NCBI RefSeq assembly: GCF_056746865.1
Contig: NZ_CM163382.1
Strand: one strand, 5' to 3'
DNA length: 64,000 bases
Shown: positions 9,404 through 44,833 of the stretch, in pieces
How the letters are laid out: every line of letters starts with the position of its first letter
Position numbering within the stretch: position 1 is the first letter of the stretch
Position numbers and translations under genes: made by a program
Notes under the pieces: model-generated
Databases searched by the model: none
Told to the model about the DNA's origin: nothing
What the model saw: the letters and a program-made list of their open reading frames with translations, nothing else

Positions 9404-10830
9404 TATTTATCCCCCAGCAAATCGCGTGCGCCCCAGTGCGGAAAGTGGCGACGAACCAGGGCATTCAATTCCAGTTCAAATGCACTGAATTCAGATGGCG
9501 CAGCAGTTGCCTGGCTAACTGGCTCGTGCACCATACCGGCACCCACGGTCACATTGCTCAGGCGATCGATAAAAATCAGCCCACCGGTAACCGGATTTTG
9601 CTGATAACGATCTAACACCAGTGGCTCGTCAAAAGTGAGATCCACCAGGCCGATGCCGTTCAGCGGCAGGTTTTCAACTTCGCGTTGGGTAAGGTTATTA
9701 ATATCAACCTGATAACGAATACCATCAACACGAGCACGCGTCTTCTTACCGGCAATTTTGATGTCATAACTCTGGCCCGCGGAAAGCGGCTGTTCCGCCA
9801 TCCATACCACATCCACCGACGCGCTCTGCACAGCCGGTAACGCTTCGTCTGCCGCCAGCAGCAGATCGCCACGGCTGATGTCGATCTCATCCGTCAGCAC
9901 TAGGGTGATCGCTTCTCCGGCAAAGGCTTCTTCGCGATCGCCATCAAAAGTCACGATCCGCGCGACGTTTGATTCCACACCAGAGGGCAGCACTTTGACA
10001 CGTTGCCCGACTTCCACTCGACCGGATGCCAGCGTTCCGGCGTAGCCACGAAAATCGAGATTCGGGCGATTAACGTACTGCACCGGGAAGCGCATTGGCT
10101 GGGCATCCACCACTCGCTGGATCTCCACGGTTTCCAGCACTTCGAGCAGTGTCGGACCGCTGTACCACGGCATACTTTCACTTTGCGAAGCCACGTTGTC
10201 GCCTTCCAGTGCAGAGAGCGGCACAAAGCGGATATCCAGATTACCCGGCAGCTGCCCGGCAAACGTCAGATAATCTTCGCGAATACGGGTGAACGTCTCT
10301 TCACTGTAACCCACCAGATCCATTTTGTTGATCGCCACGACCAGATGTTTGATCCCCAACAGTGTGGAGATAAAACTGTGACGACGGGTTTGATCGAGCA
10401 CGCCTTTACGGGCATCGATCAGTAAGATCGCCAGTTCACATGTCGATGCGCCAGTCGCCATATTGCGAGTGTACTGCTCGTGCCCTGGGGTATCGGCGAT
10501 AATAAATTTACGCTTCTCGGTAGAGAAATAACGGTAAGCCACGTCAATGGTGATGCCCTGTTCGCGCTCAGCTTGCAGGCCGTCCACCAGCAGAGCCAGA
10601 TCCAGCTTTTCGCCCTGGGTGCCGTGACGCTTACTGTCGTTATGCAGCGATGAGAGCTGATCTTCGTAGATTTGGCGGGTATCGTGCAGCAGACGACCAA
10701 TCAGGGTACTTTTTCCGTCATCGACGCTACCACAAGTCAGAAAACGCAGCAGGCTTTTATGTTGTTGCGCAATCATCCAGGCTTCGACGCCGCCTTCATT
10801 GGCGATTTGTTGTGCAAGTGCGGTGTTCAT
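9403..10830 (-). CDS. cysN: Sulfate adenylyltransferase subunit 1 (GTPase)
   Basis: 475 aa, GTPase motifs [18 protein letters not shown]. Confidence 0.95.
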
Positions 10831-13110: not shown

Positions 13111-14176
13111 CGGTTTATCCCCGCTGACGCGGGGAACACACATGAATGTCGGTTCAGACCGTGTTTTTACCCGGTTTATCCCCGCTGGCGCGGGGAACAC
13201 TGCCTCGGCGGCGGCTCTGCGCAACCGCGAAACGGTTTATCCCCGCTGGCGCGGGGAACACGTTAAACCGTGATGATCAGCAAAAGCTATTTCCGGTTTA
13301 TCTCCGCTGACGCGGGGAACACGTCAATAGGCGGCGTCCCGTAGCCGTCCCCTTCGGTTTATCCCCGCTGGCGCGGGGAACACTTGAAATGGTCCAGCAC
13401 TGCGACCGTCGGCCCCGGTTTATCCCCGCTGGCGCGGGGAACACGCTGGTGGCGCGGGCAAACGGAACAATCCCGCCGGTTTATCCCCGCTGGCGCGGGG
13501 AACACGCTAACCTATAACACGGAAAATCACACGCTAACGGTTTATCCCCGCTGGCGCGGGGAACACGGCCATTCCCCCAAGCAGACGCAGGAAGTTAACG
13601 GTTTATCCCCGCTGGCGCGGGGAACACCTGGATTTCACCTCAGCAAATGCTGGATGTGGCGGTTTATCCCCGCTGGCGCGGGGAACACCACCCCTGATAT
13701 TTTTGCCACCGTGGTTACTCCGGTTTATCCCCGCTGGCGCGGGGAACACAGAAATCAAACTCAGCGTGCAAATGGGGTAGCCGGTTTATCCCCGCTGGCG
13801 CGGGGAACACTTGCGTTATTTCTATCTGGTGAGTCGCGGCACCGGTTTATCCCCGCTGGCGCGGGGAACACGTATTTTTTATCGTCGCATGAGTCGCGGT
13901 AACCGGTTTATCCCCGCTGGCGCGGGGAACACTTCTGCCGCGCCAGCAAACGTATCGGCGGTCACGGTTTATCCCCGCTGGCGCGGGGAACACCCCAGGC
14001 CAAGCATTATATCCTGTGCGTCGTTCGGTTTATCCCCGCTGGCGCGGGGAACACACCAAGAAGCTGACGAATCAGCCCGACACGCACGGTTTATCCCCGC
14101 TGGCGCGGGGAACACCCAGTTTCATATGAGCCGCCGCGCTGGATCATCGGTTTATCCCCGCTGGCGCGGGGAACAC
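13111..14176 (-). CRISPR. Type I-E CRISPR array: 18 repeats of 29 bp (CGGTTTATCCCCGCTGGCGCGGGGAACAC on + strand), 17 spacers of 32 bp; leader at high-coordinate end
   Basis: Regular 61-bp periodicity read directly. Repeats at 13111 and 13294 carry variants (GCTGACGCG; 13294 also ATCTCC). A degenerate terminal repeat lies at about 13050-13078. Confidence 0.97.
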
Positions 14177-14272: not shown

Positions 14273-15482
<1,210 letters not shown>

Positions 15483-15486
<4 letters not shown>

Positions 15487-16133
15487 GCCTCTGCTCCGGG
15501 TTTGATCAGCATCAGACCACAGCCGAACGCGCGGCTTTTGCCATACCCCTGGCTCAGACGTTGCAGAAATAACCCGGGATCGGTGACCGTAAGCATCCCC
15601 GTATAATCCACGCTACTGAACTGGATCAGTTGCCGGGAGTTTTCCCGCCACAGTTGCTGTTGTCGGTAGGCATCAACCGAGGTATCCAGCAGTGTAAAAC
15701 CGCTTCTCTCCCCCTGCGCTGCCAGCCAGTCCAGCGCCGCCTGTTGTTGATGCAACCAGACATCACTTCCTTCCGCCTGCCCCCTCACCTGCCGTTTCGC
15801 CTCCATCAGCAGATCGTGGCGCTTGCCCGCTTTACAGATTGTTGGATTCGCCCGCAGGTTGAAACAAAGTTGTTGTCCGGTACGCAGCTCGGGCACAAAT
15901 GACCGGCATTCGATGGTGAACGTTTCACTTTCTGCCGGGCGTTCCTGCGACAGTACAAAAAAGCGAAACGCGCCCTGGAGTTCTTCCCGACGATAAAGAA
16001 ATTGCCTTTCTTTGCCGCCAGGGAAGAGATCCCACAGCCACTGATGCATCACATATTCCCCGCGATCCACCAGATGCAGCAACTGCGCAGGCGAAAGCTG
16101 GCCGGTATGTAAGGTTATTCTTGAGAGGTACAT
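15483..16133 (-). CDS. cas6e: Cas6e/CasE crRNA endoribonuclease (divergent I-E variant)
   Basis: Start at MYLSRITLHTGQ (ATG 16131-16133, GGAGG upstream); C-terminal ...GYGKSRAFGCGLMLIKP glycine-rich motif typical of Cas6e. Confidence 0.88.
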
Positions 16134-16810
16134 GGTTCCTCCTTGCTGAGCCACGGCCCCTGATTGACGGTGCGTTCCCCAAACAACCATTGCTGACGAT
16201 TTAAAGGAACATCCCGGCGGCGCAATATTTTGCTCGCGACCAGGCCGTCGTGCTCCCCTTCCCACCAGCATTCATCCTGAAGTTTCGGGAGTGCGATTTT
16301 CAGGTCGTGGAAATGCTCCTGATACTGGTGATATGCGTTACGTAAAACATCAGACGCGTTGCCTTCAAGCAGTAACGGCGCAAGTGGTAATGCCAGCGGA
16401 TGACTTTTTCGCCCCAGATAAAGCGGAAAAACTGGATGGCGTAAACCGCCCTGCAACTGTTCGAGGCTGTAAGGCGCATCGGCTGTTGTTGCCACCGCCA
16501 CCATCCACCAGGCGTCGGTGTAGTAGTCGCGCCGGGAGATAATCGCGCTCAGAAGATCAGGGTCGCTCAACTCTTCGCGACGGCTGAAATAACGCGCTTT
16601 ACGCACCTCTTTTGGCATCTGGATTGTGTGATAATCCCGTGCCCAGCGCGGGTTACGGCTGGCGCAAACCACCAGTGAATAGTGGCGGTTAAACACGTTT
16701 AATCGTTCGGTATCATCACGCCGAATCCCTACCCCGGCAGCCAGCAGCCCCAGCAATGCTGAGCGCGAAGGCAGTTCATGGGTATGACGCACTTCGCCCG
16801 CTCCAAACAA
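16115..16810 (-). pseudogene. cas5: cas5e/casD remnant lacking about 20-25 N-terminal codons; fused to island att core
   Basis: Cas5e-like body (...LPSRSALLGLLAAGVGIRRDD..., ...LYLGRKSHPLALPL...) but the frame opens with only a TTG 3 codons after a stop, and the first codons overlap the 15-bp att repeat. Confidence 0.8.
16792..16806. repeat. att core direct repeat (left copy), CTTCGCCCGCTCCAA
   Basis: Identical 15-mer recurs at 36704-36718; matches the acceptor-stem/CCA end of a tRNA. Confidence 0.6.
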
Positions 16811-16969
16811 ACATTTCTCAACGTCTACTGAAGTCCATCAAATCCACGAATATCAAGCCTTTCAGCCATTTTCATAGCTTATTAACGTCTACTCACAACT
16901 ACCAGAATCTACACACAGAAGTGTATAGTAATGCGTATAGGACAAAATTTATTTTTTGGAGCTATACAC

Positions 16970-18184
16970 ATGCTGCTTTCAGACCTTGCTATCAGGCGCG
17001 CGAAGCCGAAAGAAAAGGCTTATACACTCAATGACGGTAACGGGCTTTCGTTACTCATTGAGCCGAACGGCTCGAAAGGGTGGCGACTACGTTACAGATT
17101 TGCAGGAAAGCCCAAAATGTTGTCGTTGGGCGTGTACCCTGATGTGTCTCTGTCTGATGCCAGAGCGGCAAGGGATGAGGCTAAAAGGCTTCTTGCTGGT
17201 GGTATAAATCCAAGTGAGGCCAGAAAAGCTCAAAAGCGAGAACAGGCGAGCAAATTTGGCAATACTTTTGAGGGTATCGCTCGCGAATGGTATGAAAAGC
17301 GGATCGACAGGTGGTCATCGTCATACGCCGAGGAAATGATCGAGACGTTTGAAAAAGACGTTTTTCCGTACATTGGCGGCAGGCCGATCGCAGAAATTAA
17401 GCCAATGGAGTTGCTTGCGGTTCTCTCCCGTCTTAATGACCGTGGGGCGACCGAAAAATTGCGTAAGGTTCGCCAGCGATGCGGCGAGGTGTTCCGGTAC
17501 GCAATCATCACCGGACGCGCTGAATATAACCCCGCACCAGATCTGGCAAGCGCATTTGCTCCACACAAAAAAGAGCATTATGCCTATTTGAAGGCCGACG
17601 AACTGCCGGAATTTTTCCGCGTTCTTAATACGTACACCGGAAGCCAGATCGTCAAGCTGGGTATGCGATTATTGATTCTGACAGGGCTCCGGCCAGGGGA
17701 ATTACGACAGGCAGAATGGCAGGAGATCGATTTTGATAATCGTTTGTGGGAAGTGCCTAAAGAACGAATGAAGATGCGCCGTCCTCATTGTGTGCCGCTT
17801 TCAGAACAGGCGATCGCTATTCTGGAACAGTTAAAACACATGACGGGGCAGTATCAGTTTATTTTCCCTGGTCGAATCCAGCACAGTAAGCCGATGAGTG
17901 AAATGGCGATGAACGTGCTTATTCGTCGTATTGGCTATTCTGGGCGCGTTACTGGTCATGGGTTCCGGCACACGATGAGCACGATTTTACATGAGCAGGG
18001 CTATAACACCGCGTGGATAGAAACGCAGCTTGCACACGTTGATAAGAACTCAATTCGTGGCACGTACAATCATGCGCAATATCTGGACGGGCGGCGCGAG
18101 ATGCTCCAGTGGTACGCCGACTATATGGACTCACTGGAACAGGGCGGCAACGTGGTGCATGGCAAGTTCGGAAAATGTGGATGA
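16970..18184 (+). CDS. int: Tyrosine recombinase, P4-type integrase
   Basis: ORF 16931..18184; start taken at MLLSDLAIRRAKPKEKAYTLNDGNGLSLLIEPNGSKGWRLRY... (ATG 16970); C-terminal catalytic region with HGFRHT and Y. Confidence 0.93.
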   Translation: MLLSDLAIRRAKPKEKAYTLNDGNGLSLLIEPNGSKGWRLRYRFAGKPKMLSLGVYPDVSLSDARAARDEAKRLLAGGINPSEARKAQKREQASKFGNTFEGIAREWYEKRIDRWSSSYAEEMIETFEKDVFPYIGGRPIAEIKPMELLAVLSRLNDRGATEKLRKVRQRCGEVFRYAIITGRAEYNPAPDLASAFAPHKKEHYAYLKADELPEFFRVLNTYTGSQIVKLGMRLLILTGLRPGELRQAEWQEIDFDNRLWEVPKERMKMRRPHCVPLSEQAIAILEQLKHMTGQYQFIFPGRIQHSKPMSEMAMNVLIRRIGYSGRVTGHGFRHTMSTILHEQGYNTAWIETQLAHVDKNSIRGTYNHAQYLDGRREMLQWYADYMDSLEQGGNVVHGKFGKCG

Positions 18185-18312
18185 CTGGTTGAGTATACAG
18201 TAGTAGACTTTGAGCGACGAAAGAAAAAGCTGTGTCTAGGGTCGCTCCCGAAAAACCGTATACCTCGACGGGCTGGCACAGCCACTACAGTAGAGGACGC
18301 TGAGGTGTGCGT

Positions 18313-19110
18313 ATGATTGATATTCATGCCGAATTAAACGAATACAAAAAAGATTTTATTTCTTTACGTGAATTTCTTGAGGTCGTGCTTAAGGTCGCTG
18401 GTGATGATTATGATGTTTCAGATCTCATAACTTGGATACTCAGGAGAATAAGCGGAGAACATATCCGCCTGTACACAGTAAATGAATTTAAGCTGTTGGA
18501 ATCTTTTTGTAACCCGTATCGGGATGAATTTGATTATGATGTTCTTTATAGAAATCTGGATGCGGTTCGGAAACATGGTTGTTTACCTGGTGAGAGGGAT
18601 GAAAATGGTTTTCTGGTGTCCGGTTATTGGGAAGATCCCGAATTTGAGAACATTGGATTTATAAGGGGTGAAATTTTCGCAATTTTTCCCGATGTCCTTG
18701 ACGCGTTAACGAAGCTGGAAGGCGCTAACTCTTCTGAAAATGACGAGGTACAAGGACGCGATATTGAAAAGAAAGAGTTGCGTACAGAGGATGATTTATT
18801 ATCCCAAATCGCAATGCTGGAAAGAGAAAACGCAGAGTTAAGGGCAAGGATAGAGCAGTTAGAGCAAGAGCGCCCGATACACTTATATAAATACTGGGAT
18901 AAAGACCCATTAGCTAAGGCTATTGAGATTAGAAACAGAGAGTGGGCCAATTACGATCCAGAAAATGATTTTGCCACCAGGGGAAATCAAGAAGCGATAA
19001 CTAGGGAGCTTAAGCAGTGGGGGGCAAGTAATGCTCTTGCAACGCTCATAGAGAGGACTGCCTGCCCTATTAACCGAGACAACAGCCAAAAGAACGCAAA
19101 GCCGGATTAA
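18313..19110 (+). CDS. Hypothetical protein (265 aa) with acidic coiled-coil segment
   Basis: ORF 18307..19110; ATG 18313; coiled-coil-like stretch LLSQIAMLERENAELRARIEQLEQER; no family recognised by eye. Confidence 0.55.
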   Translation: MIDIHAELNEYKKDFISLREFLEVVLKVAGDDYDVSDLITWILRRISGEHIRLYTVNEFKLLESFCNPYRDEFDYDVLYRNLDAVRKHGCLPGERDENGFLVSGYWEDPEFENIGFIRGEIFAIFPDVLDALTKLEGANSSENDEVQGRDIEKKELRTEDDLLSQIAMLERENAELRARIEQLEQERPIHLYKYWDKDPLAKAIEIRNREWANYDPENDFATRGNQEAITRELKQWGASNALATLIERTACPINRDNSQKNAKPD

Positions 19111-19126
19111 CGCACCATACCGCATA

Positions 19127-19275
19127 CCCTGAGGGTGATTTACTGTTACCCTGAGGGTATTTTTTTATCTTCCCCGTCAATTTTACCATCACCCTTAGGG
19201 TAGATTTCCTCCCGATTACCATCACCCTTAGGGTTAATTTCCTTCCGGTAACCATTAGGCCTGAGGGTATGAAAA
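19127..19275. repeat. Five copies of an 11-bp near-palindromic motif ACCCT(G/T)AGGGT upstream of alpA
   Basis: taccctgagggtg, taccctgagggta, cacccttagggtag, cacccttagggtta, gcctgagggtatg within about 150 bp. Confidence 0.55.
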
Positions 19276-19337
19276 TATTCGTTATTTCTGTGCCATGATT
19301 ACCTCGTCAAATTGAGTAGACGTTATGAGGTAAATAG

Positions 19338-19535
19338 ATGTCAAATACGCTTATTCGTTTAACAGAAGTTCAGCGTAGAACTGGATATAGCAAGGCATGG
19401 ATTTATCGCCTTATGGGGCAAGGTAAATTTCCTGCATCAGTTAAAATTGGCTCGCGAGCGATTGCTTTCGTTGAAAGTGAAATTGACGAATGGATCAATC
19501 AGCGTATTGCCGAATCACGCGGAACGGCTGCCTGA
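19338..19535 (+). CDS. alpA: AlpA-family phage transcriptional regulator/excisionase
   Basis: 65 aa MSNTLIRLTEVQRRTGYSKAWIYRLMGQGKFPASVKIGSRAIAFVESEIDEWI, classic AlpA HTH. Confidence 0.85.
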   Translation: MSNTLIRLTEVQRRTGYSKAWIYRLMGQGKFPASVKIGSRAIAFVESEIDEWINQRIAESRGTAA

Positions 19536-19610
19536 TTAAATAGCTACGGGTTATTGCCCAAGCTATCCACTAGCAAATAAAAAGTAACTTAATTCGATAG
19601 CGGAGTTTTT

Positions 19611-20435
19611 ATGAAACTGCGAAAAACGCCCGTACAGGGGCAGGGCTTTGTTCGGCCTGAAAACCAGAATCTGCAAAATTTCGGCGAAATTATCCCGGTT
19701 ATTTCCGGCGTTATTGGCGGGCGTGAAGCCGCTGTTGTTAGCGCAAAAGCGTTACACAAAGCGTTGGGCGTGGGAAAAGACTTCTCTACATGGATCACTG
19801 ATCGTATCTCTGAATATGACTTCACCATTGGGTACGATTACTCAGTCCATAAAACAATTTCCCCAAATTTGGGGAAAAGCCCGAATGGCGAGGCTTACAG
19901 CAAGATTAAGCACTCTGGCAGACCCGGTAAAGACTATCTGTTAAGTGTCGGAATGGCGAAAGAACTGGCAATGATCGAACGCACCGAACAGGGCCGCGCC
20001 GTTCGTCAGTACTTCATCAAATGCGAGGAGGAGCTACACAAGGTAGCGCCTGTACGTTCCGCAGCGTTACGCCGGGAACTGAAAGCCCGTATCACCGTAG
20101 CCAGCTACTTTAAGCCAATGTGTGCCGCGCTGGAGGCGTACCGGGCTGAACTGGGTAAAAACACGCTCCAGCACCACTACACCACGGAAGCCAATATGCT
20201 GGCGCGTATCGTGCTGGGTGGCATGAATGCAAAACAGTGGGCGCAGGCGAACGGCATCACAGGCGAACCACGCGACCACATGAGCACGCTGCAGCTTGAG
20301 CACCTTTCTTACCTTGAGCAGAGCAATATCACGCTGATTGAGTTAGGCCAGGACTACCACCAGCGGAAAGCTGAATTAATTCGTCTTTCGCAACGCTGGT
20401 TAGCCCGCCGCATGGAGGTGAGCAGCCATGCGTAA
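19611..20435 (+). CDS. Phage antirepressor (AntA/KilAC-type)
   Basis: 274 aa; sequence resembles prophage antirepressor proteins; part of int-alpA-ant module. Confidence 0.65.
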   Translation: MKLRKTPVQGQGFVRPENQNLQNFGEIIPVISGVIGGREAAVVSAKALHKALGVGKDFSTWITDRISEYDFTIGYDYSVHKTISPNLGKSPNGEAYSKIKHSGRPGKDYLLSVGMAKELAMIERTEQGRAVRQYFIKCEEELHKVAPVRSAALRRELKARITVASYFKPMCAALEAYRAELGKNTLQHHYTTEANMLARIVLGGMNAKQWAQANGITGEPRDHMSTLQLEHLSYLEQSNITLIELGQDYHQRKAELIRLSQRWLARRMEVSSHA

Positions 20436-20985
20436 ACCTGTCTTTTATGCCGGTCGCACTGAAATCTCTGTCATTAAATTCGATGACATTCAGGTGCGCA
20501 TAGTGAGTATCAACGGCGAGCCGTGGTTTGTTGGCGCTGATGTGTGTGCCGCGCTGGAAATCAGCAATGTTACTGATGCCGTTTCAGTTCTGGATAACGA
20601 TGAGGTAATGACCCTAGCTTTAACCGAGGGTCATTCCGGTAAGCGTGGTGGTGCCAGAAGCTGGAATGTTGTCTCTGAATCAGGTTTCTACAAACTGATC
20701 GCCCGCAGCCGTAAAGCTTCCACACCAGGCACATTTGCGCACCGTTTCAGTAACTGGGTATTCCGCGAGGTGATTCCTTCAATCCGCAAAACGGGGGGTT
20801 ATGGTGTTCCGTTTGCCATGCTGAATGATTTCAGTAAACGTCAGGCTGCATATCAACAGGAAGCCAGCAAACGCGGTTACAGGTTACAGCAATGCAAAGA
20901 GGCAAAAGATGCACTGGAACGAGAAGAGCGGGCGCTATGGCGTAAATATCAGCCTGATTTTCTGGAGGGTGAAAGCAATGTGTAA
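20428..20985 (+). CDS. Bro-N domain protein (prophage antirepressor-like)
   Basis: 185 aa; N-terminal IRIVSINGEPWFVGADVCAALEISN is the Bro-N signature. Confidence 0.75.
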   Translation: MRKPVFYAGRTEISVIKFDDIQVRIVSINGEPWFVGADVCAALEISNVTDAVSVLDNDEVMTLALTEGHSGKRGGARSWNVVSESGFYKLIARSRKASTPGTFAHRFSNWVFREVIPSIRKTGGYGVPFAMLNDFSKRQAAYQQEASKRGYRLQQCKEAKDALEREERALWRKYQPDFLEGESNV

Positions 20986-21153
20986 CGATCCGAACGTTAC
21001 AGAAAGAAAAAGCGCCCCGTTGCTGGATAACAGGCAAAACAAAGGCGACCGGGATAGGTCGCCAGTGGGAACAAAGGAAATCAAACGCATCGCCAACAAT
21101 GCCAGATTTGCGGCTGGTGGGCAATGTGATCAGTGTGCTGGCTTGCTGGTGGG

Positions 21154-21351
21154 CTATTCCTGCTCTTTAGCATCGCCATACTGCGATGTTTTCCAGGTAT
21201 GCGATTCCATTTTTGTGCGCCTGTACTCTTTTAAGAACTTCTCAAGGACAAACGCACATGGCGCAAATCTTTCCTGTTCTTGTTCGCTTACCGCATTTTT
21301 GCGTTGTTTTTTCCTGGATGAGGATAATTTCTTTAATGATTTGTCAGTCAT
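21154..21351 (-). CDS. Small basic protein (65 aa), paralog-like partner of 21409..21606
   Basis: ORF on strand opposite to neighbours; both small ORFs end ...AKEQE and share a duplicated 3' DNA segment. Confidence 0.35.
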   Translation of the reverse strand: MTDKSLKKLSSSRKKQRKNAVSEQEQERFAPCAFVLEKFLKEYRRTKMESHTWKTSQYGDAKEQE

Positions 21352-21408
21352 CGTAGATACCTGTAACCCTGTGCGCCACAGTTCACCGCACCACGGCGCT
21401 GGTGATGG

Positions 21409-21606
21409 TTACTCCTGCTCTTTGGCCTTCCGGCGCTGTTCATATTTTAATTTGCGTCCACAGGCATCTAAGACCCATGCGGAAAAATTAGCACTAGGAT
21501 TAGTTAATTTTTCTTGTTCAACACTGGCATCAATCCCATCTATAAGCTCGTGCGGGAATCGAATATTTTTCTTTGCTGATTTGTTGTTTGTGTTTCCGCT
21601 AGACAT
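21409..21606 (-). CDS. Small ribbon-helix-helix-like DNA-binding protein (65 aa)
   Basis: NIRFPHELIDGIDASVEQEK...FSAWVLDA resembles Arc/CopG RHH pattern. Confidence 0.4.
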   Translation of the reverse strand: MSSGNTNNKSAKKNIRFPHELIDGIDASVEQEKLTNPSANFSAWVLDACGRKLKYEQRRKAKEQE

Positions 21607-21810
21607 TGGTACACCTCACTTAAATGGATTTGATGGGCGCACACAATACAGCAAAAAAAGTGAGAAGTTAAGTATTGACATGTGCGCACACATGATTTTA
21701 ATCTGTGCGCAAGTTTGGGTTGCATTGCTCAAATTAAGCAACGCCCCGCAGTGCTCGCAACACATGCAGGGCGTCTAACCACCAACGATAGAAAGCGTAT
21801 CGAGGTAGCT

Positions 21811-22014
21811 ATGTTAAATCATACCACACACCCGCAAGGGCGGGACTCGCACAACCTGAATAAATACATCTGGCGTTTTATCGCCCTGAGCACCGCACAA
21901 CCACGCGTAATACACATCGAGGCCGCCAGCGAACAGGAAGCCCGTCAGCAATCCCCGGCTGGCTGCGTGATGGTATTTACTGCCCGCATCCGTCAGGGGG
22001 AATACTATGCGTGA
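21811..22014 (+). CDS. Small hypothetical island protein (67 aa)
   Basis: ATG 21811 after GAGG; MLNHTTHPQGRDSHNLNKYIWRFIALSTAQ... Confidence 0.4.
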   Translation: MLNHTTHPQGRDSHNLNKYIWRFIALSTAQPRVIHIEAASEQEARQQSPAGCVMVFTARIRQGEYYA

Positions 22015-22264
22015 TGAACGATTTATTCTTCTGGAGCAAAAATTCAGTGAAGCGCCAAAAAATGAAATTGATGCTCTTTTGCATATCGCGAATATGCTAA
22101 AAGTAGCAACGTTCCTTATAGTTTCGAATCTGGAGCATGAAACGGCGTTAGATATACTGAACAGTGCTGTCGATTATTCTGAATATATTGCCGAGGATAA
22201 ATACAGGCAATTACCAGATTTGTTAGCCCATAAATATAAAGAAGAACCTCACACCGGGAAATAA
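22007..22264 (+). CDS. Hypothetical protein (85 aa)
   Basis: ORF in operon-like series upstream of primase gene. Confidence 0.45.
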   Translation: MRDERFILLEQKFSEAPKNEIDALLHIANMLKVATFLIVSNLEHETALDILNSAVDYSEYIAEDKYRQLPDLLAHKYKEEPHTGK

Positions 22265-22266
22265 AC

Positions 22267-22569
22267 ATGAAGAAGATTAAATTTACTGGCTTAAATGCCA
22301 GCGGACAGACTCACCCGAAAATCAGGATCGGGGATATTTTCCGGGATAAATATGGTGACAGCGTGGTTATTAATTCCGTGTATGAACGGCACATTACATA
22401 CCGCCGCGCAGGGTACGACTATGACTGTGTGATGCCCGTTCATCAGTTCCGGCGTGATTTTTCACTGGTATGTGCAGCACCACGCAGTAAGCCCACCAGT
22501 AAAGAGAAAGCACGGGCAAATATTCAGGTAATAAAGAACATGATTAACGCATTCAGGGGCAAGAAATGA
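22267..22569 (+). CDS. Hypothetical protein (100 aa)
   Basis: ORF overlapping primase start; tight spacing with neighbours. Confidence 0.45.
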   Translation: MKKIKFTGLNASGQTHPKIRIGDIFRDKYGDSVVINSVYERHITYRRAGYDYDCVMPVHQFRRDFSLVCAAPRSKPTSKEKARANIQVIKNMINAFRGKK

Positions 22570-24692
22570 AACGCGCACCGAATTTAAAGCACCAGCCGAA
22601 AGACAAAATGACGGAGGTGATTATCTTTGCGGGTAGTGATGCCTGGGCACATGCGAAAGAGTGGAGCGAATGGGCCGGAAAGCATATTGCGGCAGATGAT
22701 ACACATCCAGTTATTCTTGGACCGGAACAACTGGCGAGTCTGGCAGACACGCAAATCATCGACAAAGGGCGCTATTACGTGCGCGTTTATCGTGCTGGTG
22801 AAATATCAGAGCAGCACCTTACACAGATAGCGACACTGCTTGCAGTGGCGGGTGTGAAGGAGGCGCGTTGCTACCGCAGCTTTGTTGATCAGCAGCCGGA
22901 GGACTGGACACCGCGCATGGCTGGACTGAAGGATGATGCGGAACGCGGTAACAGTCTGGTGATCAACCTTCCGGCGAAGACAAATTTCACCGGAAATTAT
23001 GATGACGAATTAAAGCCTCGTGTTGAAAGTCGCGTCGATGGTGTTTTCTGGGTAACGCCCAAAGTGGACAAGCAGTCAGGCGAAATTATCCGGCCTGAGA
23101 CGTGGTTATGTTCTCCGCTTGAACTACTGGGAACAGGAACAATCGGCAAAGAGCATTACCGCGTGATGCGCTGGAAAAAACCAGCAAACCATGAGGTCAT
23201 TACAATGGCGGTCCCGTGCGGAGGCATTGGTGACCGTGACGGCTGGCGGTTGCTGAAAGACCACGGCCTTAACGTGACGACCAACGGCAAATACAGGGCT
23301 ATCTTGGCTGACTGGATGCAGTTAAGCGGAAACCATGAGGAATGGCAGTTAAGCACAACAACGGGGTGGCATTTTGGTGCGTACATCATGCCGGATGGTT
23401 CGATCATCGGTGAATCAGAGAAACCCATCCTGTTTACCGGAAAAACTGCCGCTGTTAATGGCTATTCCGTGGCGGGAACAGCGGAGGGCTGGCGCGATAC
23501 CGTGGCACGGCTGGCTGGTGGTAATCCGTCCATGATGCTGGGTGTGGCGGTATCGCTATCTGCACCATTAATCGGGCTGGTGGGTGCTGACGGCTTCGGG
23601 GTTCATCTTTTTGAGCAATCATCAGCAGGTAAAACCACCACACAGAACATTGCATCAAGTTTATGGGGAGAGCCGGACGCGCAACGGCTGACCTGGTACG
23701 GAACGGCGTTAGGTATCGCCAACGAGGCCGAAGCACATAATGACGGGCTGTTACCCCTGGATGAAATAGGCCAGGCCGGAAACGCACGGGAGGTGTCCAC
23801 GTCAGCCTATACGCTGTTTAACGGTTCCGGGAAATTACAGGGGGCGAAGGACGGCGGCAACAGGGAGATAAAACACTGGCGTACGGTGGCAATCAGCACC
23901 GGAGAAATGGACGTTGAAACATTCCTCAAAACGGAAGGGATAAAAATTAAAGCGGGACAGCTTGTCCGTCTGCTTAACGTACCGATGGAAAAGGCCTCGC
24001 AGTTTCACGAATACAGCACCGGAAAGGCGCACGCAGACGCGTTAAAAGATGCCTGGACAGAAAATCACGGGGCGGCAGGTCGTGAGTGGGTTAAATGGCT
24101 GGCAGGCCACCAGCAGGAGGCAAAGGACGCGGTAAGGGCATGTCGCGAGCGGTGGCGCAACCTGATACCGGAGAGCTACGGCGAGCAGGTTCACCGTGTG
24201 GGGGAAAGATTCGCCGTACTGGAGGCCGCGCTTGTGCTTTCCGGTCATGTTACAGGCTGGGATGTTCAGGCGTGCCGTGATGCAGTTCAGCATAACTTTA
24301 ATGCCTGGGTGAAGGAATTCGGCACGGGCAACAGGGAATTTAAACAGATGGTTGAACAGGCTGAGGCGTTTTTGTCGTCGTTCGGGTTCAGTCGATACCT
24401 TCCCTATCCAAACAGCGACGAGCGTGATTTACCGATTAAAGACCTTGCCGGATACAGAAAGGGGAGTATCAGAAACGAAGATGACGAGTTCCGTTTTTAC
24501 ACGTTCCCGCATGTGTTTGAGGGTGAGATAGCACAGGGATTTAATCCGTCTCACTTTGCCCGCGCGTTGAGTGCAGCCGGAATGCTGGAAGCGGGAGGCG
24601 ACCGCCGTTACAAGAAAAAGGCGCTCGGCAGGATTGGCGGGAAGCAACATATTTTTTACGTGCTGATGTTCCAGCCTGAAGCAGAAGATTAA
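22566..24692 (+). CDS. Satellite/prophage replication protein, DUF927-type primase-helicase-like, Walker A present
   Basis: 708 aa; Walker A-like FEQSSAGKTT; immediately followed by iterons. Confidence 0.75.
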   Translation: MKRAPNLKHQPKDKMTEVIIFAGSDAWAHAKEWSEWAGKHIAADDTHPVILGPEQLASLADTQIIDKGRYYVRVYRAGEISEQHLTQIATLLAVAGVKEARCYRSFVDQQPEDWTPRMAGLKDDAERGNSLVINLPAKTNFTGNYDDELKPRVESRVDGVFWVTPKVDKQSGEIIRPETWLCSPLELLGTGTIGKEHYRVMRWKKPANHEVITMAVPCGGIGDRDGWRLLKDHGLNVTTNGKYRAILADWMQLSGNHEEWQLSTTTGWHFGAYIMPDGSIIGESEKPILFTGKTAAVNGYSVAGTAEGWRDTVARLAGGNPSMMLGVAVSLSAPLIGLVGADGFGVHLFEQSSAGKTTTQNIASSLWGEPDAQRLTWYGTALGIANEAEAHNDGLLPLDEIGQAGNAREVSTSAYTLFNGSGKLQGAKDGGNREIKHWRTVAISTGEMDVETFLKTEGIKIKAGQLVRLLNVPMEKASQFHEYSTGKAHADALKDAWTENHGAAGREWVKWLAGHQQEAKDAVRACRERWRNLIPESYGEQVHRVGERFAVLEAALVLSGHVTGWDVQACRDAVQHNFNAWVKEFGTGNREFKQMVEQAEAFLSSFGFSRYLPYPNSDERDLPIKDLAGYRKGSIRNEDDEFRFYTFPHVFEGEIAQGFNPSHFARALSAAGMLEAGGDRRYKKKALGRIGGKQHIFYVLMFQPEAED

Positions 24693-24715
24693 CTTCCCTG
24701 TGTGAGGTAAAAAGT

Positions 24716-24845
24716 TGCGGGTTATGCGGGTTATCCTGTGCATAAGTTAATTAACTGAATGATTAAAAAGGAAATTAATAACCCGCACGTAACCCGCAAA
24801 ACGGCAGTTATAACCCGCAAATGTGCGATTGTAACCCGCAAAATT
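24716..24845. repeat. Iteron cluster 1 (putative replication origin): convergent copies of TTGCGGGTTAT / ATAACCCGCAA
   Basis: gttgcgggttatgcgggttat then aataacccgcacgtaacccgcaaaacggcagttataacccgcaaatgtgcgattgtaacccgcaaa. Confidence 0.7.
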
Positions 24846-24902
24846 TCACTGTAAGAGTGTAAACAAGCGTAACTATCACGTTAAAACCGGAGAACAAACA
24901 GC

Positions 24903-25328
24903 ATGACGGCGCAAATATCAGCTTACGGGCGGCTGGTGGCTGACCCGCAGTTAAAGACCACCAGCAAGGGCACACAAATGGCGATGGCGAGTATGGCGGT
25001 CCCCCTTCCATGCAATCAGACAGATGACGGAACGGCGACGATGTGGTTATCCGTCCTGGCGTTTGGCAGACAGGCTGACGCACTGGCAAAACACCACAAA
25101 GGCGAACTGGTGAGCGTGGCCGGTAACATGCAGGTGAGCTGGTGGACGGGCCAGAACGGCGAAACGAGGCAGGGATGGCAGGTTATCGCAGACAGCGTAA
25201 TCAGTGCGCGAACGGCGCGACCGGGCGGCAAAAAAGGCCAGCAGGGGCAGGCTACTGATGCACTGAACAGGGCAAAGCAACAGACAGGCCAGCACGATGA
25301 TCCGTACGGGGACGGGATACCGTTTTAA
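24903..25328 (+). CDS. Single-stranded DNA-binding protein-like (OB-fold)
   Basis: 141 aa; pattern GRLVADPQLKTT...WLSVLAFGRQADALAKHHKGELVSVAGNMQVSWW...GETRQGWQV resembles SSB OB-fold core; Gly/Gln-rich tail ending DDPYGDGIPF like the SSB acidic tip. Confidence 0.55.
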   Translation: MTAQISAYGRLVADPQLKTTSKGTQMAMASMAVPLPCNQTDDGTATMWLSVLAFGRQADALAKHHKGELVSVAGNMQVSWWTGQNGETRQGWQVIADSVISARTARPGGKKGQQGQATDALNRAKQQTGQHDDPYGDGIPF

Positions 25329-25411
25329 TTCACAACAGCGAACAGAGTAATTACCCAGTGCGCCGTAAAGCCCCGTCCTTCAGGTCGGGGATATAAGGCG
25401 CGGTTTTCCAC

Positions 25412-25828
25412 CTAACTAGGTGTTTGCTGTTGTTCAATGTATTGGCGGATGATGGATATTGGCGCACCTCCGCAGCTACTGGCAAAATAGCTGGGACTCC
25501 ATAAAACGCCTTTGTAGTAATACCTGACTGCAATATCTGGTCGATCTCGTCGCAATAATCTACTCGATACGCCCTTGAGACTGTTCACCAGGGTGGATAT
25601 CGCCAATTTGGGAGGATAGTTAATTAGCAGGTGAACGTGATCTCGTTCTCCATCCATTTCAACCAGTTCAGCTTCAAAATCAGCACATACACTTGAAAAG
25701 TAAGTGCGTAGTTTTTCTATTGCGTCATGGTCAAAAATCTGGCGTCGGTACTTGGTAACAAAGACCAGGTGAACGTGCATCAGGAAGACACAGTGCCTTC
25801 CACGTCGGATATCGGTTTCTTTTTTCAT
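25412..25828 (-). CDS. tnpA: IS200/IS605 Y1 transposase TnpA
   Basis: Start at MKKETDIRRGRHCVFLMHVHLVFVTKYRR; HuH motifs HVHLV and DHVHLL; ends ...GGAPISIIRQYIEQQ. Confidence 0.88.
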   Translation of the reverse strand: MKKETDIRRGRHCVFLMHVHLVFVTKYRRQIFDHDAIEKLRTYFSSVCADFEAELVEMDGERDHVHLLINYPPKLAISTLVNSLKGVSSRLLRRDRPDIAVRYYYKGVLWSPSYFASSCGGAPISIIRQYIEQQQTPS

Positions 25829-25850
25829 AGGCCAAAGTATAATTTGGCAT

Positions 25851-27059
25851 ATGAAACGACTACAAGCTTTCAAATTCCAGTTAAGACCAAATGGAAAACA
25901 GGAGCGTGAAATGAGGCGCTTCGCGGGCGCATGTCGTTTCGTTTTCAATCGTGCTCTGGCGCTTCAGAATGAGAATCATGAGGCCGGGAACAAATATATT
26001 TCTTATGCAAAGATGACTTCCTGGCTGGTTGAATGGAAAAATGCTACTGAAACGCAATGGCTTAAAGATTCTCCCTCACAGCCATTGCAGCAGTCACTGA
26101 AAGACCTTGAGCGAGCCTACAAAAATTTCTTTCAGAAGCGTGCCGCTTTTCCCCGATTCAAAAAGCGGGGACAGCATGATGCATTCCGCTATCCGCAGGG
26201 TGTTAAGCTCGATCAGGAAAACAGCCGTATTTTTCTGCCGAAACTGGGCTGGATGCGCTACCGGAACAGCCGTCAGGTCACGGGTGTTGTGAAAAATGTC
26301 ACTGTCAGCCAGTCCTGCGGTAAGTGGTACATCAGTATTCAGACAGAAAGTGAAGTATCAACTCCGGTTCACCCTTCAGCATTAATGGTCGGGCTGGATG
26401 CTGGCGTGGCTAAACTCGCCACGCTGTCAGATGGCACGGTCTTTGAGCCTGTAAACAGTTTTCATAAAAACCAGAAGAAGCTGGCGAGACTTCAGCGCCA
26501 GTTAAGCCGCAAGGTTAAATTCAGCAACAACTGGCAGAAGCAGAAACGCAAAATACAGCGACTGCATTCCCGTATCGCAAATATCCGCAGGGACTACCTT
26601 CACAAAGTCACAACGACCATCAGCAAAAACCACGCAATGATAGTCATTGAGGATTTGAAGGTCAGCAACATGTCAAAGTCAGCCTCGGGTACGGTCAGCC
26701 AGCCGGGGCGCAATGTCCGGGCAAAATCAGGTTTAAACCGTTCGATACTGGATCAGGGCTGGTATGAAATGCGCCGTCAGCTTGAGTACAAGCAGCTCTG
26801 GTGTGGCGGTCAGGTGCTTGCTGTTCCGCCAGCGTACACAAGCCAGCGTTGCGCGTGCTGTGGTCATACAGCGAAAGAAAATCGCCTGTCACAAAGTCAA
26901 TTCAGATGCCAGGTATGTGGATATACAGCGAACGCCGATGTAAACGGCGCTCGTAACATTTTAGCGGCGGGGCACGCCGTTCTTGCCTGTGGAGGGATGG
27001 TGCAGTCAGGCCGCCCGTTGAAGCAGGAACCCACCGAAATGATTCAGGCGACAGCCTGA
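25851..27059 (+). CDS. tnpB: TnpB (OrfB) RNA-guided nuclease-like protein
   Basis: 402 aa; [17 protein letters not shown]...; C-terminal CxxC...CxxC zinc finger ([37 protein letters not shown]). Confidence 0.9.
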
Positions 27060-27265
27060 ACGTAGCAGGAATCCACGTCCTTCAGGGCGTGGAGGATGTC
27101 AAATATCAATGCGACGACTGGAATGTTCCAGGAAGGCACAGAGGCCACCGAAGCAACCGGATAATTTAGAAGACCTGAAACGGTCGCTTAAACGCACTGA
27201 AAAAGAAATGGGGATAGATGGGATCGGGAAATCAGTATGGCGTAACTACCAGAAGTAAGCACAGA
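27060..27265 (+). ncRNA. Putative omegaRNA (reRNA) scaffold at tnpB 3' end / IS right end
   Basis: By analogy with IS200/IS605 TnpB systems; structured region ending in hairpin GCCGGAGCAATCCGGC plus T-run. Boundaries not determined. Confidence 0.35.
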
Positions 27266-27289
27266 GCCGGAGCAATCCGGCTTTTTTTT
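27266..27289 (+). terminator. Hairpin plus T8 tract at IS right end
   Basis: gccggagcaatccggc followed by tttttttt. Confidence 0.5.
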
Positions 27290-27389
27290 GGCTGAAATCA
27301 ATCAATCTGTTTTTGTGATAGAAATATATTTATCTACCACTTTTTTCGATCAATAATGTGCATAATTTAGTCATTAAGAGGAAATTGCT

Positions 27390-27596
27390 GTGAATTGTAT
27401 TAACGACCTGAACACAGGCGATGTCAGAGGTGGTTCCGTTCATCTGGATGCACAGACCGTGATGCGCCTTAAGCAGTACAGAATCGACCATGTGAACAAT
27501 CACCCTGATCAGCCATTACCAGGCGTGGCGCAGATTGTCAGACATGCCGTAAACGCCTGGCTTAATCAGAATGGTTTTGCATCGGGGGGTGAGTAA
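27390..27596 (+). CDS. Small protein (68 aa), first gene of the novel operon; possible regulator
   Basis: GTG start 27390 preceded by AAGAGG; no recognisable family. Confidence 0.45.
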   Translation: MNCINDLNTGDVRGGSVHLDAQTVMRLKQYRIDHVNNHPDQPLPGVAQIVRHAVNAWLNQNGFASGGE

Positions 27597-27692
27597 TGAA
27601 TCGCTGGTACAGCATCAAAGCAGAGGGACGCCAATGTTATCTAACTCAGGTTTTATGAATTCTGACTCCCGATTCAAAATAGGAGGTTACTA

Positions 27693-30224
27693 ATGCCAGT
27701 CGTACCAACAGTATCCGGACGTCAGGTTGAGAGCCGTGGAGTTCAGTCAGCAGGCTTGCAGACGTTTTCTCAGCCAGGTATTGGTGATGCTTTTGTTCGG
27801 GCAGGGGCAGAGGCAATTGATGTTTTTGGTCAGGCAAAACAGCGTGCCAATATTGCCTTGATTCAGGAGGCATCCCTTAAACTCAGTCAGATAGGCAGTG
27901 ATCTGCTGAATAATCCTGAAACAGGATTGCTTAACCTGAAAGGGAAAAATGCTATTGGAAAAGGCCATGAGTATACACAGCAGTTTGATGCTCAGATCGA
28001 ACAACTGGCTATGTCGCTGCCGGATGAACAGGCTCGTAATGCTTTCATGCAGCAGGCGCAGCAGCAGCGTATTCAGTTCGCTACGCAGGCCGGGAGGTAC
28101 GAGATAGGGCAAATAAATGCCTACGAAGAAGGCCAGTTTCAGGCGACACTGCTGAATAATGGTAAAAATGCCTCAGCATTATATGGCGACAACGCAGCAT
28201 ACATATTGGCTAATACGCAAACTTTCCAGCAAATTGAGGATTACGGTATTGCGCATGGCTGGAGCGACGAGCAAATCCAGGCCAAGAAAATCGAGTTTAA
28301 AGAAGCAACAGCAAAAGCAACTGCTCAAAATGCTATTGGAGCAAACTATCTTCAGGTAAGACAGCAAAATGGCGAGTTAAGCGATACTGCTGCTGGATCT
28401 CGCCGTGCTGTAGCAGATAGTGGCTCTTCCGATCGTACCCGCGGTATACGCAACAATAACCCCGGCAATCTTGAATACAGCAAAACTAATCCGTGGATTG
28501 GGCAGACTGGTGATGATGGTCGCTTTGCCAAATTCGAAACCCCTGAACACGGTATTCGCGCGCTTGGTCGCAATTTGCTGTCGTATCAGCGTCAGGGTTA
28601 TGACACCATCAGCGAAATAATTAATCGCTGGGCACCGGCCAGTGATGATAATAAAACTGATGCTTATATACGGGCAGTATGTGCTCAGCTCGGTGTAACT
28701 CCTGACCAGCCGCTTGACGCATCAAATCCTGACACACTGAAATCTCTGTGCAAAGCAATTATTCATCATGAGCAAGGCAGTCAGCCGTACAGTGATCAGC
28801 AATTGGCCGCTGGCGTTAGTGCCGCACTGGGGCTTTCTCAGCTACCGACAAAAAATAAACGTTATACCGGTGTAGCCTGGTTCGATGCTTTAAGTGAATC
28901 AGATCAGGCCAGCGTGTTGCGACAGACGGATGCATTAGCCAGACAGCAGCAGGCTGAATATAGAACGATGCTCGAAAGCCGGGTTCGCGATGCAACGGCT
29001 GCGTATATGCGTGGCGTTGAATTTCCTAACCCGCCTGGTGAGGGTGAGTTCATTGCTGCTTATGGTGTCAGAGAAGGAAACCTGCGATATACCGAGTTCA
29101 GAAATTTGCAGATCGCCGGACAGTATATAGGCTCTTTCCGCAACATGCCGACAAGCAGCATTACCGCATATGTTGAGCAATTACGCCCGGATACTGGTGA
29201 GACAGGGGAGGGGTATGCGTCTCGTGCGGAGTTATTCGACCGGGTATCGGCGGCAGCCACGAAGGTAATAACCCAGAGGCAGAATAATCCGTTTAGTGCA
29301 GCGGTGGAAATCGGAGCCTATAAGCCGATCACCAGCAACAACCCTGACGACATCACTGCCGAGGTGGCTAACCGTTTCTCGTCGCAGGAAAGCTTACGCG
29401 CGTTGGGAATTAATGCCCCACTCCTCAACAGTGAAGAGGCGGCTGCGCTGGCACAGCAGGTGCGCGGCACTCAGAACGTTGACCAGACAATTAAACTGTT
29501 GCAGAGCATGGGGGAGAAGCTGCCTGCGCCAGCAATACGGCAGGTGGCATCTGTAATTGCTCCGAACAGTGCGGCAACAGCCTATTCTGCGCTGCTGCTG
29601 GGCACGCCGGATAACCAGTACGACAACACCAGGCCGACGATCCCATATAGTCAGTTCATCGGGTATAAGCCGACGATGAACAAGTACGACGTTGCAAAGG
29701 TTATTCTTTCCGGCGACCAACTACTGAATCCGACGAAGGCCATGAAGAATGCGGGCATAACTCCGGTACAGTTGCCGAGCGAAGATAAGATGAAAGACGC
29801 TTTCGACGAACAGGTAGGTAATGCATTTGCCCGTAACCCGCAGTTACGCCAGATCAGTTATAGCCTTTTCAAAGCCGCTTACGCAGGAATAGCTTATCAA
29901 TCTGGTGATGCCTCTACGGTAAGAACCAGTATGCCTGATACAGACATTGTAGCTGATGCCGTGAAGTATGCTACTGGCGGTATATACAATGGTTTTAATG
30001 GCGGCGACGTTGTAATGCCTTTTGGCATGGATAAATCTACTTTCAAAGATCGCTATACCACATCTGCGAAACAAGCACTGAAAGATGCCGGACTTAACGT
30101 AAATGCAGTGTCAAATTTCACGCCAGTTAATATCGGCAATAACCGGTATCGGCTTGTAAATGGTAGCGGACGCTGGGCAACAGATCCCAGAACCAATAAA
30201 GCTATTGTCGTGAGGGTTGAATAA
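27693..30224 (+). CDS. Large hypothetical protein P1 (843 aa), Q/A-rich, conserved-looking block RNNNPGNLEY...
   Basis: Strong RBS AGGAGG before ATG 27693; stop overlaps next start (TAATG). Confidence 0.8.
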   Translation: MPVVPTVSGRQVESRGVQSAGLQTFSQPGIGDAFVRAGAEAIDVFGQAKQRANIALIQEASLKLSQIGSDLLNNPETGLLNLKGKNAIGKGHEYTQQFDAQIEQLAMSLPDEQARNAFMQQAQQQRIQFATQAGRYEIGQINAYEEGQFQATLLNNGKNASALYGDNAAYILANTQTFQQIEDYGIAHGWSDEQIQAKKIEFKEATAKATAQNAIGANYLQVRQQNGELSDTAAGSRRAVADSGSSDRTRGIRNNNPGNLEYSKTNPWIGQTGDDGRFAKFETPEHGIRALGRNLLSYQRQGYDTISEIINRWAPASDDNKTDAYIRAVCAQLGVTPDQPLDASNPDTLKSLCKAIIHHEQGSQPYSDQQLAAGVSAALGLSQLPTKNKRYTGVAWFDALSESDQASVLRQTDALARQQQAEYRTMLESRVRDATAAYMRGVEFPNPPGEGEFIAAYGVREGNLRYTEFRNLQIAGQYIGSFRNMPTSSITAYVEQLRPDTGETGEGYASRAELFDRVSAAATKVITQRQNNPFSAAVEIGAYKPITSNNPDDITAEVANRFSSQESLRALGINAPLLNSEEAAALAQQVRGTQNVDQTIKLLQSMGEKLPAPAIRQVASVIAPNSAATAYSALLLGTPDNQYDNTRPTIPYSQFIGYKPTMNKYDVAKVILSGDQLLNPTKAMKNAGITPVQLPSEDKMKDAFDEQVGNAFARNPQLRQISYSLFKAAYAGIAYQSGDASTVRTSMPDTDIVADAVKYATGGIYNGFNGGDVVMPFGMDKSTFKDRYTTSAKQALKDAGLNVNAVSNFTPVNIGNNRYRLVNGSGRWATDPRTNKAIVVRVE

Positions 30225-35040: not shown

Positions 35041-35354
35041 TGACGAGAGATAAAATTGAATATATTGCTTCTCTTAAATATGAAGCTGAGAAATGGAGAA
35101 GGATTGGCGGGTGGGGAACATTAATATCACTCTCTGCTTTACTTATAGACTCCTGGTTCAGACATATTGATGCAGCATCATTACTTTTTGAATCAGCAGT
35201 ACTTGGTGGATTCATTTGCTGTTGGGGTGGTAATTATGATCGGGCGTCCAAACATAAGAGAGAACTTGACGCGATATGTTTTGCTTTATTCGGTAAGGAT
35301 TACGAAAGTTCTGACCTTGATATAATTGAATTCAACAAAACGGAACTATCGTGA
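35040..35354 (+). CDS. Small predicted membrane protein P4 (104 aa)
   Basis: ATGA overlap with P3 stop; two hydrophobic segments (GTLISLSALLIDSWF, AVLGGFICCWGG). Confidence 0.6.
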   Translation: MTRDKIEYIASLKYEAEKWRRIGGWGTLISLSALLIDSWFRHIDAASLLFESAVLGGFICCWGGNYDRASKHKRELDAICFALFGKDYESSDLDIIEFNKTELS

Positions 35355-35362
35355 CATGTCAC

Positions 35363-35388
35363 AGGCCGCTTTCGCGGCCTTGTTTTTA
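35363..35388 (+). terminator. Rho-independent terminator closing the P1-P4 operon
   Basis: aggccgctttcgcggcct followed by tgttttt, 9 bp after the P4 stop. Confidence 0.6.
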
Positions 35389-38559: not shown

Positions 38560-38567
38560 TTTTCATA

Positions 38568-41599: not shown

Positions 41600-41603
41600 T
41601 GAA

Positions 41604-44802: not shown

Positions 44803-44833
44803 GATAATGTCTTGCGATATGGAGCATGCTGGT

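Follow-up and report, generated by a model that had tools for sequence, protein, structure and literature searches.

Probable integration of a glyU-specific, satellite-like island at a secondary site within cas5e of Escherichia coli, with inversion of approximately 136 kb

Results

An island between a truncated cas operon and the ETT2 cluster

The window, a 64,000-nucleotide stretch of contig NZ_CM163382.1, contains a CRISPR array and part of a cas operon, followed by a mobile island and then by the DNA that natively lies downstream of the tRNA gene glyU. Its main features are:

13111-14176 (strand not given): type I-E CRISPR array of 18 repeats of 29 nt and 17 spacers, identical to the array of ST69-like genomes
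14273-14566, minus strand: cas2e (coordinates mapped from the 118UI annotation)
14563-15486, minus strand: cas1e, a pseudogene interrupted by a stop after codon 199 (coordinates mapped from the 118UI annotation)
15483-16133, minus strand: cas6e (coordinates mapped from the 118UI annotation)
16115-16798, minus strand: remnant of cas5e (casD), from which the first 21 native codons are gone
16792-36718, plus strand: the whole PICI-like island, 19.9 kb, with CTTCGCCCGCTCCAA at both ends
36719-64000, plus strand: native glyU-downstream flank, comprising the GH15/ygeQ gene and the ETT2 type III secretion cluster (36719-56000 by identity, 56001-64000 by ORF listing)

The rearrangement has split cas6e-cas1-cas2 from cas3-casABC and their promoter. 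On the cas6e, cas1e and cas2e side, iap and cysDN follow beyond the CRISPR array. Native Cas5e starts MSQYLIFQLHGPMASWGVDAPGEVRHT..., and the translations indicate that the window keeps only ..GEVRHT.... Candidate new starts for the remnant are a GTG at 16791 and a TTG at 16810, with a GGAG provided by tRNA-derived sequence; the exact protein starting at the TTG is not on record, and no promoter-like (sigma-70-like) site reading into the orphaned cas5e'-cas6e-cas1-cas2 genes was found.

The stop within cas1e is annotated in 118UI as well, which indicates that the adaptation module had ceased to function in this lineage by the time of the event in cas5e. The spacers were also compared with the island, and none of the 17 matched it (the best alignment, 16 of 18 nt with E=2.2, is at the level of chance); self-targeting was therefore rejected as the driver of the rearrangement. 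As cas1e had already been interrupted and no spacer targets the island, there is no evidence of selected CRISPR escape.

At the other end of the window, the ETT2 cluster (within 36908-64000) is long and apparently complete, which is consistent with an ST69-like background (PMC7058095). The GH15/ygeQ gene (36908-38559) has a single-base deletion in a T5 run at approximately 38161 relative to the otherwise identical sequence of 118UI. Two ORFs, of 437 and 113 aa, are left of the 536-aa glycoside hydrolase family 15 gene as a result. The deletion may be a genuine frameshift or an error of long-read sequencing in a homopolymer, and so bears on the quality of the assembly.

The island encodes an ordinary glyU-specific integrase

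The integrase-proximal part of the island carries two recombination-related genes:

16970-18184, plus strand: P4-family tyrosine integrase of 404 aa (phrog_1 integrase, E=6e-78)
19338-19535, plus strand: AlpA-family regulator or excisionase of 65 aa (an ORF; the equivalent gene in identical islands is PF05930, Phage_AlpA)

The gene order is integrase, a 267-aa ORF that has no family match, AlpA, AntA and Bro-N antirepressors and a DUF4222 protein, followed by a DUF927 primase (phrog_1139), an SSB, an inserted TnpB of the IS200/IS605 type and three large genes for virion-protein-like products. An int-alpA-primase core is therefore present, and the island showed no set of capsid, terminase or lysis genes. 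Gram-negative PICIs such as EcCIMP1 and EcCICFT073 have an int-alpA-antirepressor-primase layout (PMC11773190), and the island resembles them in this order, in falling within their 10-20 kb size and in having relatives with PerC and ProQ/FinO genes. Unlike EcCIMP1, it is an island of glyU and carries three epsilon15-like virion-protein genes, and it is termed PICI-like on the basis of its genes.

A protein identical to the integrase is annotated elsewhere with PF13356, PF22022 and PF00589 and occurs in 2239 blocks of the contig collection; among the matches listed, the context was actS-glyU in 10 of 10. The best whole-island relatives (99.6% identity over 91% coverage) start at the 3' end of glyU or at equivalent positions, and none of these best whole-island matches was seen at a site other than glyU. 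Together, the contexts of the integrase and the location of the related islands indicate that the enzyme is an ordinary glyU-specific one.

The IS200/IS605-type element (25355-27102) contains a TnpB ORF at 25851-27059 on the plus strand, which encodes a 402-aa RNA-guided endonuclease (NF040570, E=8e-117); it replaces approximately 1 kb that is present in SCU-105, overlapping the ProQ/FinO gene of that strain. The three large genes (27693-35040, plus strand; 843, 686 and 925 aa) correspond to PHROGs 992, 1145 and 684, which are head or virion structural families, and had no PADLOC or NCBIfam match. A defence function was rejected for these genes, as their homologues are virion proteins. Of the three products, the one of 925 aa shares 89% identity with a virion (structural) protein of Salmonella phage epsilon15, and the presence of helper-like virion proteins in a satellite suggests, from sequence similarity, a helper of the epsilon15/Uetakevirus type. 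The island in GCA_046604685.1 is the same island minus the three large genes.

The right end of the island is a canonical attR

It had been proposed in the preliminary description that a 15-mer at 16792-16806 recurs at 36704-36718, there as part of an 18-nt tRNA 3' end. An exact count returned two copies of CTTCGCCCGCTCCAA in the window at precisely these positions, both on the plus strand (chance expectation, none; the largest number in 100 shuffles was 0), and comparison with tRNA sequences identified both as the 3' end of tRNA-Gly(CCC), forming direct repeats that bracket the 19.9-kb island. At the right-hand copy the match to the tRNA extends to 18 nt, TTCCCTTCGCCCGCTCCA (36700-36717), and the following feature was assigned:

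36700-36718, plus strand: canonical attR, consisting of the P arm ending TTCC, then CTTCGCC, then the native tRNA 3' end CGCTCCA(A)

The right end reads ..gtattgttccCTTCGCCcgctccaaTTTATCTTCACC.. and is identical from the core onward to the unoccupied glyU site of 118UI (..cttcgcccgctccaATTTATCTTCACC), which equals the window from 36704. The canonical attR of SCU-105 (local position 20139) and that of ETEC1747 (27563) are shorter by one C, reading CTTCGCC-GCTCCAA. The attR of the window is a perfect copy of the glyU 3' end of its own lineage, which is consistent with local integration into an empty site of the ST69 type.

The left end of the island joins cas5e at seven base pairs

The left copy of the repeat was said in the preliminary description to be flanked by cas5 and not by a tRNA. 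This was borne out: minus-strand cas5e/casD lies to the left of 16798, and ARAGORN found no tRNA gene in the whole window. The integrase-proximal end of the island, which adjoins an intact tRNA in SCU-105, in the first copy of ETEC1747 and in GCA_046604685.1, has cas5e in that place. The features at this end are:

16792-16798, plus strand: CTTCGCC, the crossover (overlap) region and the only 7 bp common to native cas5e and glyU
16792-16969, plus strand: probable secondary-site attL, consisting of the tRNA-Gly 3'-end repeat (16792-16806) and the island P' arm up to the start of the integrase gene, 100% identical to the canonical attL beside intact glyU in SCU-105 and others

Native cas5e in 118UI reads ..gacgcaCTTCGCCgggggcatcgac.. 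(in a longer stretch, ..ggtatgacgcaCTTCGCCgggggcatcgac..), intact glyU in SCU-105 reads ..ggttcgattccCTTCGCCcgctccaaacaaac.., and the junction in the window reads ..gacgcaCTTCGCCcgctccaaacaaac.. (..ggtatgacgcaCTTCGCCcgctccaaacaaac.. in the longer stretch). Starting at 16792 and reading to the right, the sequence matches at 100% identity the 3' end of glyU and the integrase region in SCU-105 and approximately 20 other genomes, in all of which the tRNA is intact. In a BLAST comparison with 5426 complete E. coli genomes, the matches to cas5e stopped at 16798 and those to glyU and the integrase started at 16792. The overlap of cas5e and glyU is therefore seven bases with mismatches directly on both sides, which confines the crossover to CTTCGCC.

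This heptamer occurs at approximately 180 copies per Mb, or about 900 per genome. The flanks of the cas5e site and of the glyU attB agree at 16 of 40 positions, a value that exceeds those of typical sites in the approximately 186 kb sampled but is not striking; the idea that the resemblance to attB extends well beyond the core was accordingly set aside. A shared segment of only 7 bp with modestly similar flanks is also what might be left by illegitimate recombination, independent of the integrase, at a chance microhomology. Against this, the breakpoint falls exactly in the tRNA-derived core at which the canonical attL and attR form, and the same junction was found in other genomes, as follows.

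The cas5e site has been used repeatedly

Among the 5426 complete E. coli genomes, the left junction of the window was present in one, that of the porcine strain ETEC1747. This genome has an intact glyU with one copy of an island and, approximately 140 kb away, a second and inverted copy inside cas5e. One end of the second copy reads cas5e 3'..gacgcaCTTCGCCcgctccaaacaaac, and its other end reads ..gtattgttccCTTCGCCgggggcatcgac.. and runs into the cas5e 5' fragment and cas7e. Both ends are precise, CTTCGCC is duplicated and no sequence is missing, a pattern characteristic of integration between attP and attB by a tyrosine recombinase. Identity between the two copies is 99.9%; a later 2.4-kb deletion removed int and alpA from the one in cas5e. 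The cas flank of ETEC1747 is approximately 92% identical to that of the window, and its island is a different variant.

Reciprocal products were sought by predicting the hybrid ORF that would result from fusion of the 21-aa Cas5e N-terminus with the right end of the window's island variant, and by looking up the resulting 154-aa protein exactly. It is on record in three contigs (GCA_046604685.1, SRR23378764 and SRR8989464). In GCA_046604685.1, a single contig reads cas3-casA-casB-cas7e-cas5e 5'|CTTCGCC|island-integrase-intact tRNA-Gly(CCC). The Logan assembly SRR23378764 has the same junction between the right end of the island and the cas5e 5' fragment, and a second contig of this assembly reads cas5e 3'-CTTCGCCCGCTCCAA-TTTATC.., in which a bare glyU-downstream arm, with no island, lies beside yqeG. 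This pair of junctions indicates that, in at least one lineage, the chromosome does physically exist in the inverted form. The Logan assembly SRR8989464 has the junction in a background where cas3-casC shares only 94.5% identity with 118UI and different synonymous SNPs are present in the 5' end of cas5e. An equivalent exact look-up of Cas7e returned normal cas operons only, with no unusual context.

Use of the truncated 225-aa Cas5e as a query led to GCA_031020925.1 and the Logan assembly SRR17709973, which both carry the left junction of the window and differ from it at one position in 10,754 nt. In each of them the contig breaks off shortly past 16792, after exactly 77 nt in GCA_031020925.1 (a typical SPAdes k) and after exactly k-1 = 30 nt in SRR17709973.

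Other observations were made in these assemblies. In SRR23378764, yqeG is only approximately 330 bp from the glyU-downstream arm (contig 9673-10001) and the whole ETT2 cluster is absent; identity to 118UI is 98.0% in the galR-yqeG region and approximately 100% in the cas genes, indicating a mosaic background. At the equivalent of 16804, GCA_031020925.1 and SRR17709973 have CTTCGCCCGCTCAAAAC in place of ..GCTCCAAAC, so that the tRNA-derived CCA of the P' arm has become CAA; were a P' arm with CAA present at glyU too, the tRNA encoded there would have a defective 3' end. Finally, the Logan contig ERR10986270 (1-52) has another junction in the 5' region of cas5e, at which an unrelated ..cgcctgaataaaaaatctctgggtatcg abuts tggggcgtcgatgccccc approximately 20 nt upstream of the CTTCGCC site, possibly as the result of another insertion in cas5e.

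The cas5e site has thus been used in cas backgrounds that are 100%, 94.5% and approximately 92% identical, and with two island variants, which implies at least three independent events at the same 7-mer. With approximately 900 copies of CTTCGCC per genome, the repeated use of one of them is not random. At least three events at one 7-mer rule out random microhomology, and also an assembly error at the junction, which the preliminary description had named among its potential refutations; the junction is present in four other assemblies. Occurrence in only one of the 5426 complete genomes likewise argues against an old arrangement held in common, by which a single ancient event would have spread by descent or transfer. 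Given, in addition, that ETEC1747 has both reciprocal junctions and a clean 7-bp duplication, either form of this explanation (illegitimate recombination or one ancient event) is exceedingly improbable.

From these observations we infer, with a probability of approximately 90%, that the junction at 16792-16798 is an attL made by the tyrosine integrase of the island at a secondary site in cas5e. The preliminary description had entertained integrase action at a secondary site as a possibility, and the precise insertion with a 7-bp duplication in ETEC1747, together with recurrence in independent backgrounds, is strong evidence for it.

The flanks of the island are inverted relative to related genomes

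The cas flank of the window (7,792 nt) is 100% identical to 3198534-3206325 of 118UI on the plus strand, and the ETT2 flank (19,282 nt; 36719-56000) is 100% identical to 3342327-3323045 on the minus strand; other ST69-like genomes are alike in this respect. In 118UI and its relatives cas5e is intact, and glyU is unoccupied and directly followed by the sequence found from 36719 onward. The distance between the cas5e core and the glyU core in these genomes is 136,002 bp, and the cores are on opposite strands. The preliminary description had noted for K-12 an opposite order of ETT2 relative to cas; in the nearest relatives the two loci are likewise oppositely oriented with respect to the window.

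As the flanks are colinear with these genomes but oppositely oriented, and as an attL in cas5e is paired with a canonical attR, the window represents the gain of an island plus an inversion of 136,002 bp. Of the two rearrangements originally offered, inversion is upheld by the position of the flanks, 136 kb apart on opposite strands in relatives, and deletion was rejected, since the cores have opposite orientations on the chromosome and neither flank lacks any sequence. Intramolecular recombination between two inverted cores can only invert the intervening DNA and does not delete it.

Two island copies as a probable route to the inversion

The breakpoints had been placed in casD and at the island attL. 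The junction between cas5e and the glyU att core agrees with the first of these, and a break at attL is only one of several routes by which the arrangement could have arisen. The route that we favor would begin with integration of the island in glyU. A second copy would then integrate, inverted, in cas5e, which is the state preserved in ETEC1747. The inverted copies would subsequently recombine, either by homologous (RecA) recombination or by an integrase-mediated attL x attL reaction, flipping the interval between them and yielding both the isomer of the window and a reciprocal glyU-island-cas5e 5' junction of the kind found in GCA_046604685.1. Later excision of one copy would give the state of SRR23378764. 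The favored route draws on a documented precursor, on the intact glyU at all of the reciprocal junctions found and on the contig breaks in the nearest relatives, which lie just past 16792 and point to a second left flank for the P' arm. These breaks could equally reflect abundant excised attP circles, and the relatives in question carry the CCA to CAA change that is absent from the window. On balance, the full three-step route is considered probable for the genome of the window, with some reserve.

A genome with two island copies also allows that the junction in cas5e is real and that the inversion alone is an artefact, the assembler having left the cas5e copy of the island into ETT2. ETEC1747 is exactly such a two-copy genome, the contigs of near-identical relatives break at the boundary of the repeat, and the 1-nt deletion in the GH15 homopolymer hints at long-read error. 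However, the inverted isomer was found independently in other assemblies built with k-mers longer than the 15-nt repeat, finished long-read assemblies usually span a 20-kb repeat, and the window island's own features (the TnpB insertion and cargo) would tell the copies apart. A path swap across two copies is accordingly very unlikely.

The inversion might instead have taken place directly in a genome with one copy, through a reaction of the attL of the glyU island with the inverted pseudo-attB in cas5e. Such a reaction would fuse the 5' body of glyU to the 5' part of cas5e and so destroy glyU. The inverted cores and the confinement of the crossover to the 7-bp core are in keeping with it. SRR23378764 and GCA_046604685.1 appear to be single-copy and carry the mirror-image product, as attR x pseudo-attB would give; a direct reaction explains them in one step, vs three for the two-copy route, and in this they count against the latter. 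Integrase-driven chromosomal inversions are documented in Thermococcales (PMC5495485). A recombination of attL with attB is not known as a standard efficient reaction of lambda-type integrases. The junction of the glyU body with the cas5e 5' fragment, which a direct reaction of attL predicts and which the preliminary description had anticipated as the reciprocal product, was detected in none of the 5426 complete E. coli genomes (chimeric 400-nt query) and in no JGI metagenome contig (26-nt core pattern). The reciprocal junctions in public assemblies instead join the right end of the island to the cas5e 5' fragment, and every one keeps glyU intact. The closest relatives, moreover, branch exactly at 16792, which implies a second P' arm. 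Direct inversion is for these reasons possible for the window, but unlikely.

A more general form of direct inversion is that the cas5e site serves the satellite family as a functional back-up attB, with which the integrase would directly recombine a resident attL or attR, so that a single-copy island would flip approximately 136 kb in one step while dismantling the type I-E interference operon. This proposal is regarded as doubtful; were it true, it would amount to integrase-encoded inactivation of CRISPR, with the CTTCGCC core defining the overlap region of the enzyme.

Discussion

Integration at secondary sites is a familiar property of site-specific elements, and the secondary attachment sites of phage lambda are a known example. 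For tRNA-specific elements it has been established with ICEBs1 of Bacillus subtilis (Menard & Grossman 2013, PMC3715440). The island is like ICEBs1 in being specific for a tRNA gene and in using a tyrosine integrase; in both cases only a short crossover core is common to the secondary site and the primary attB, and integration disrupts the target gene. The likeness to secondary integration extends to the duplicated core and the occupied primary site of ETEC1747. Unlike the ICEBs1 case, the same secondary site, in a cas gene, recurs here in natural isolates and is inverted approximately 136 kb from the primary site, and the part played by the integrase is here predicted from sequence.

The inversion also has parallels. 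The integrase Int-pTN3 of Thermococcales drives inversions through a low-specificity activity that resembles homologous recombination (PMC5495485). As in other inversions driven by integrases or by element copies, the att sites or copies of the element are the end points, and the intervening chromosome has been flipped with no loss. In contrast to Int-pTN3, the crossover here is at a single defined 7-bp core, and the flipping itself may be due to the integrase or to RecA.

CRISPR-Cas loci are inactivated by other mobile elements, including IS elements in cas genes (PMC10359306), and prophages integrate into the CRISPR repeats of Streptococcus pyogenes (bioRxiv 10.1101/2020.10.09.333658). The present case is similar in that a mobile element lies in a CRISPR-Cas locus and interference is disabled; it differs in that the element is a satellite island at a pseudo-att site inside cas5e, and neither transposition nor a repeat-targeting phage is involved. 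In the literature, no report was found that links glyU islands with cas genes or that joins glyU, an integrase and CRISPR. The event is a new and recurrent instance of a well-known kind and not a new mechanism.

The result is of use for annotation. It accounts for an apparently broken CRISPR-Cas locus, in that the truncated cas5e and the missing cas3-casABC are attributable to one site-specific event and not to random decay. It also defines a 7-bp overlap for the integrase, narrowing to 7 bp the segment in which this enzyme, very common among glyU islands of E. coli, probably exchanges strands. Since the cas5e and glyU sites are inverted and approximately 136 kb apart, integration at cas5e creates, or sets up, large inversions; these flip the orientation of genes with respect to replication and may confuse assembly as well as typing based on synteny. 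E. coli appears to have a natural pseudo-att site inside cas5e that has been used repeatedly in unrelated strains.
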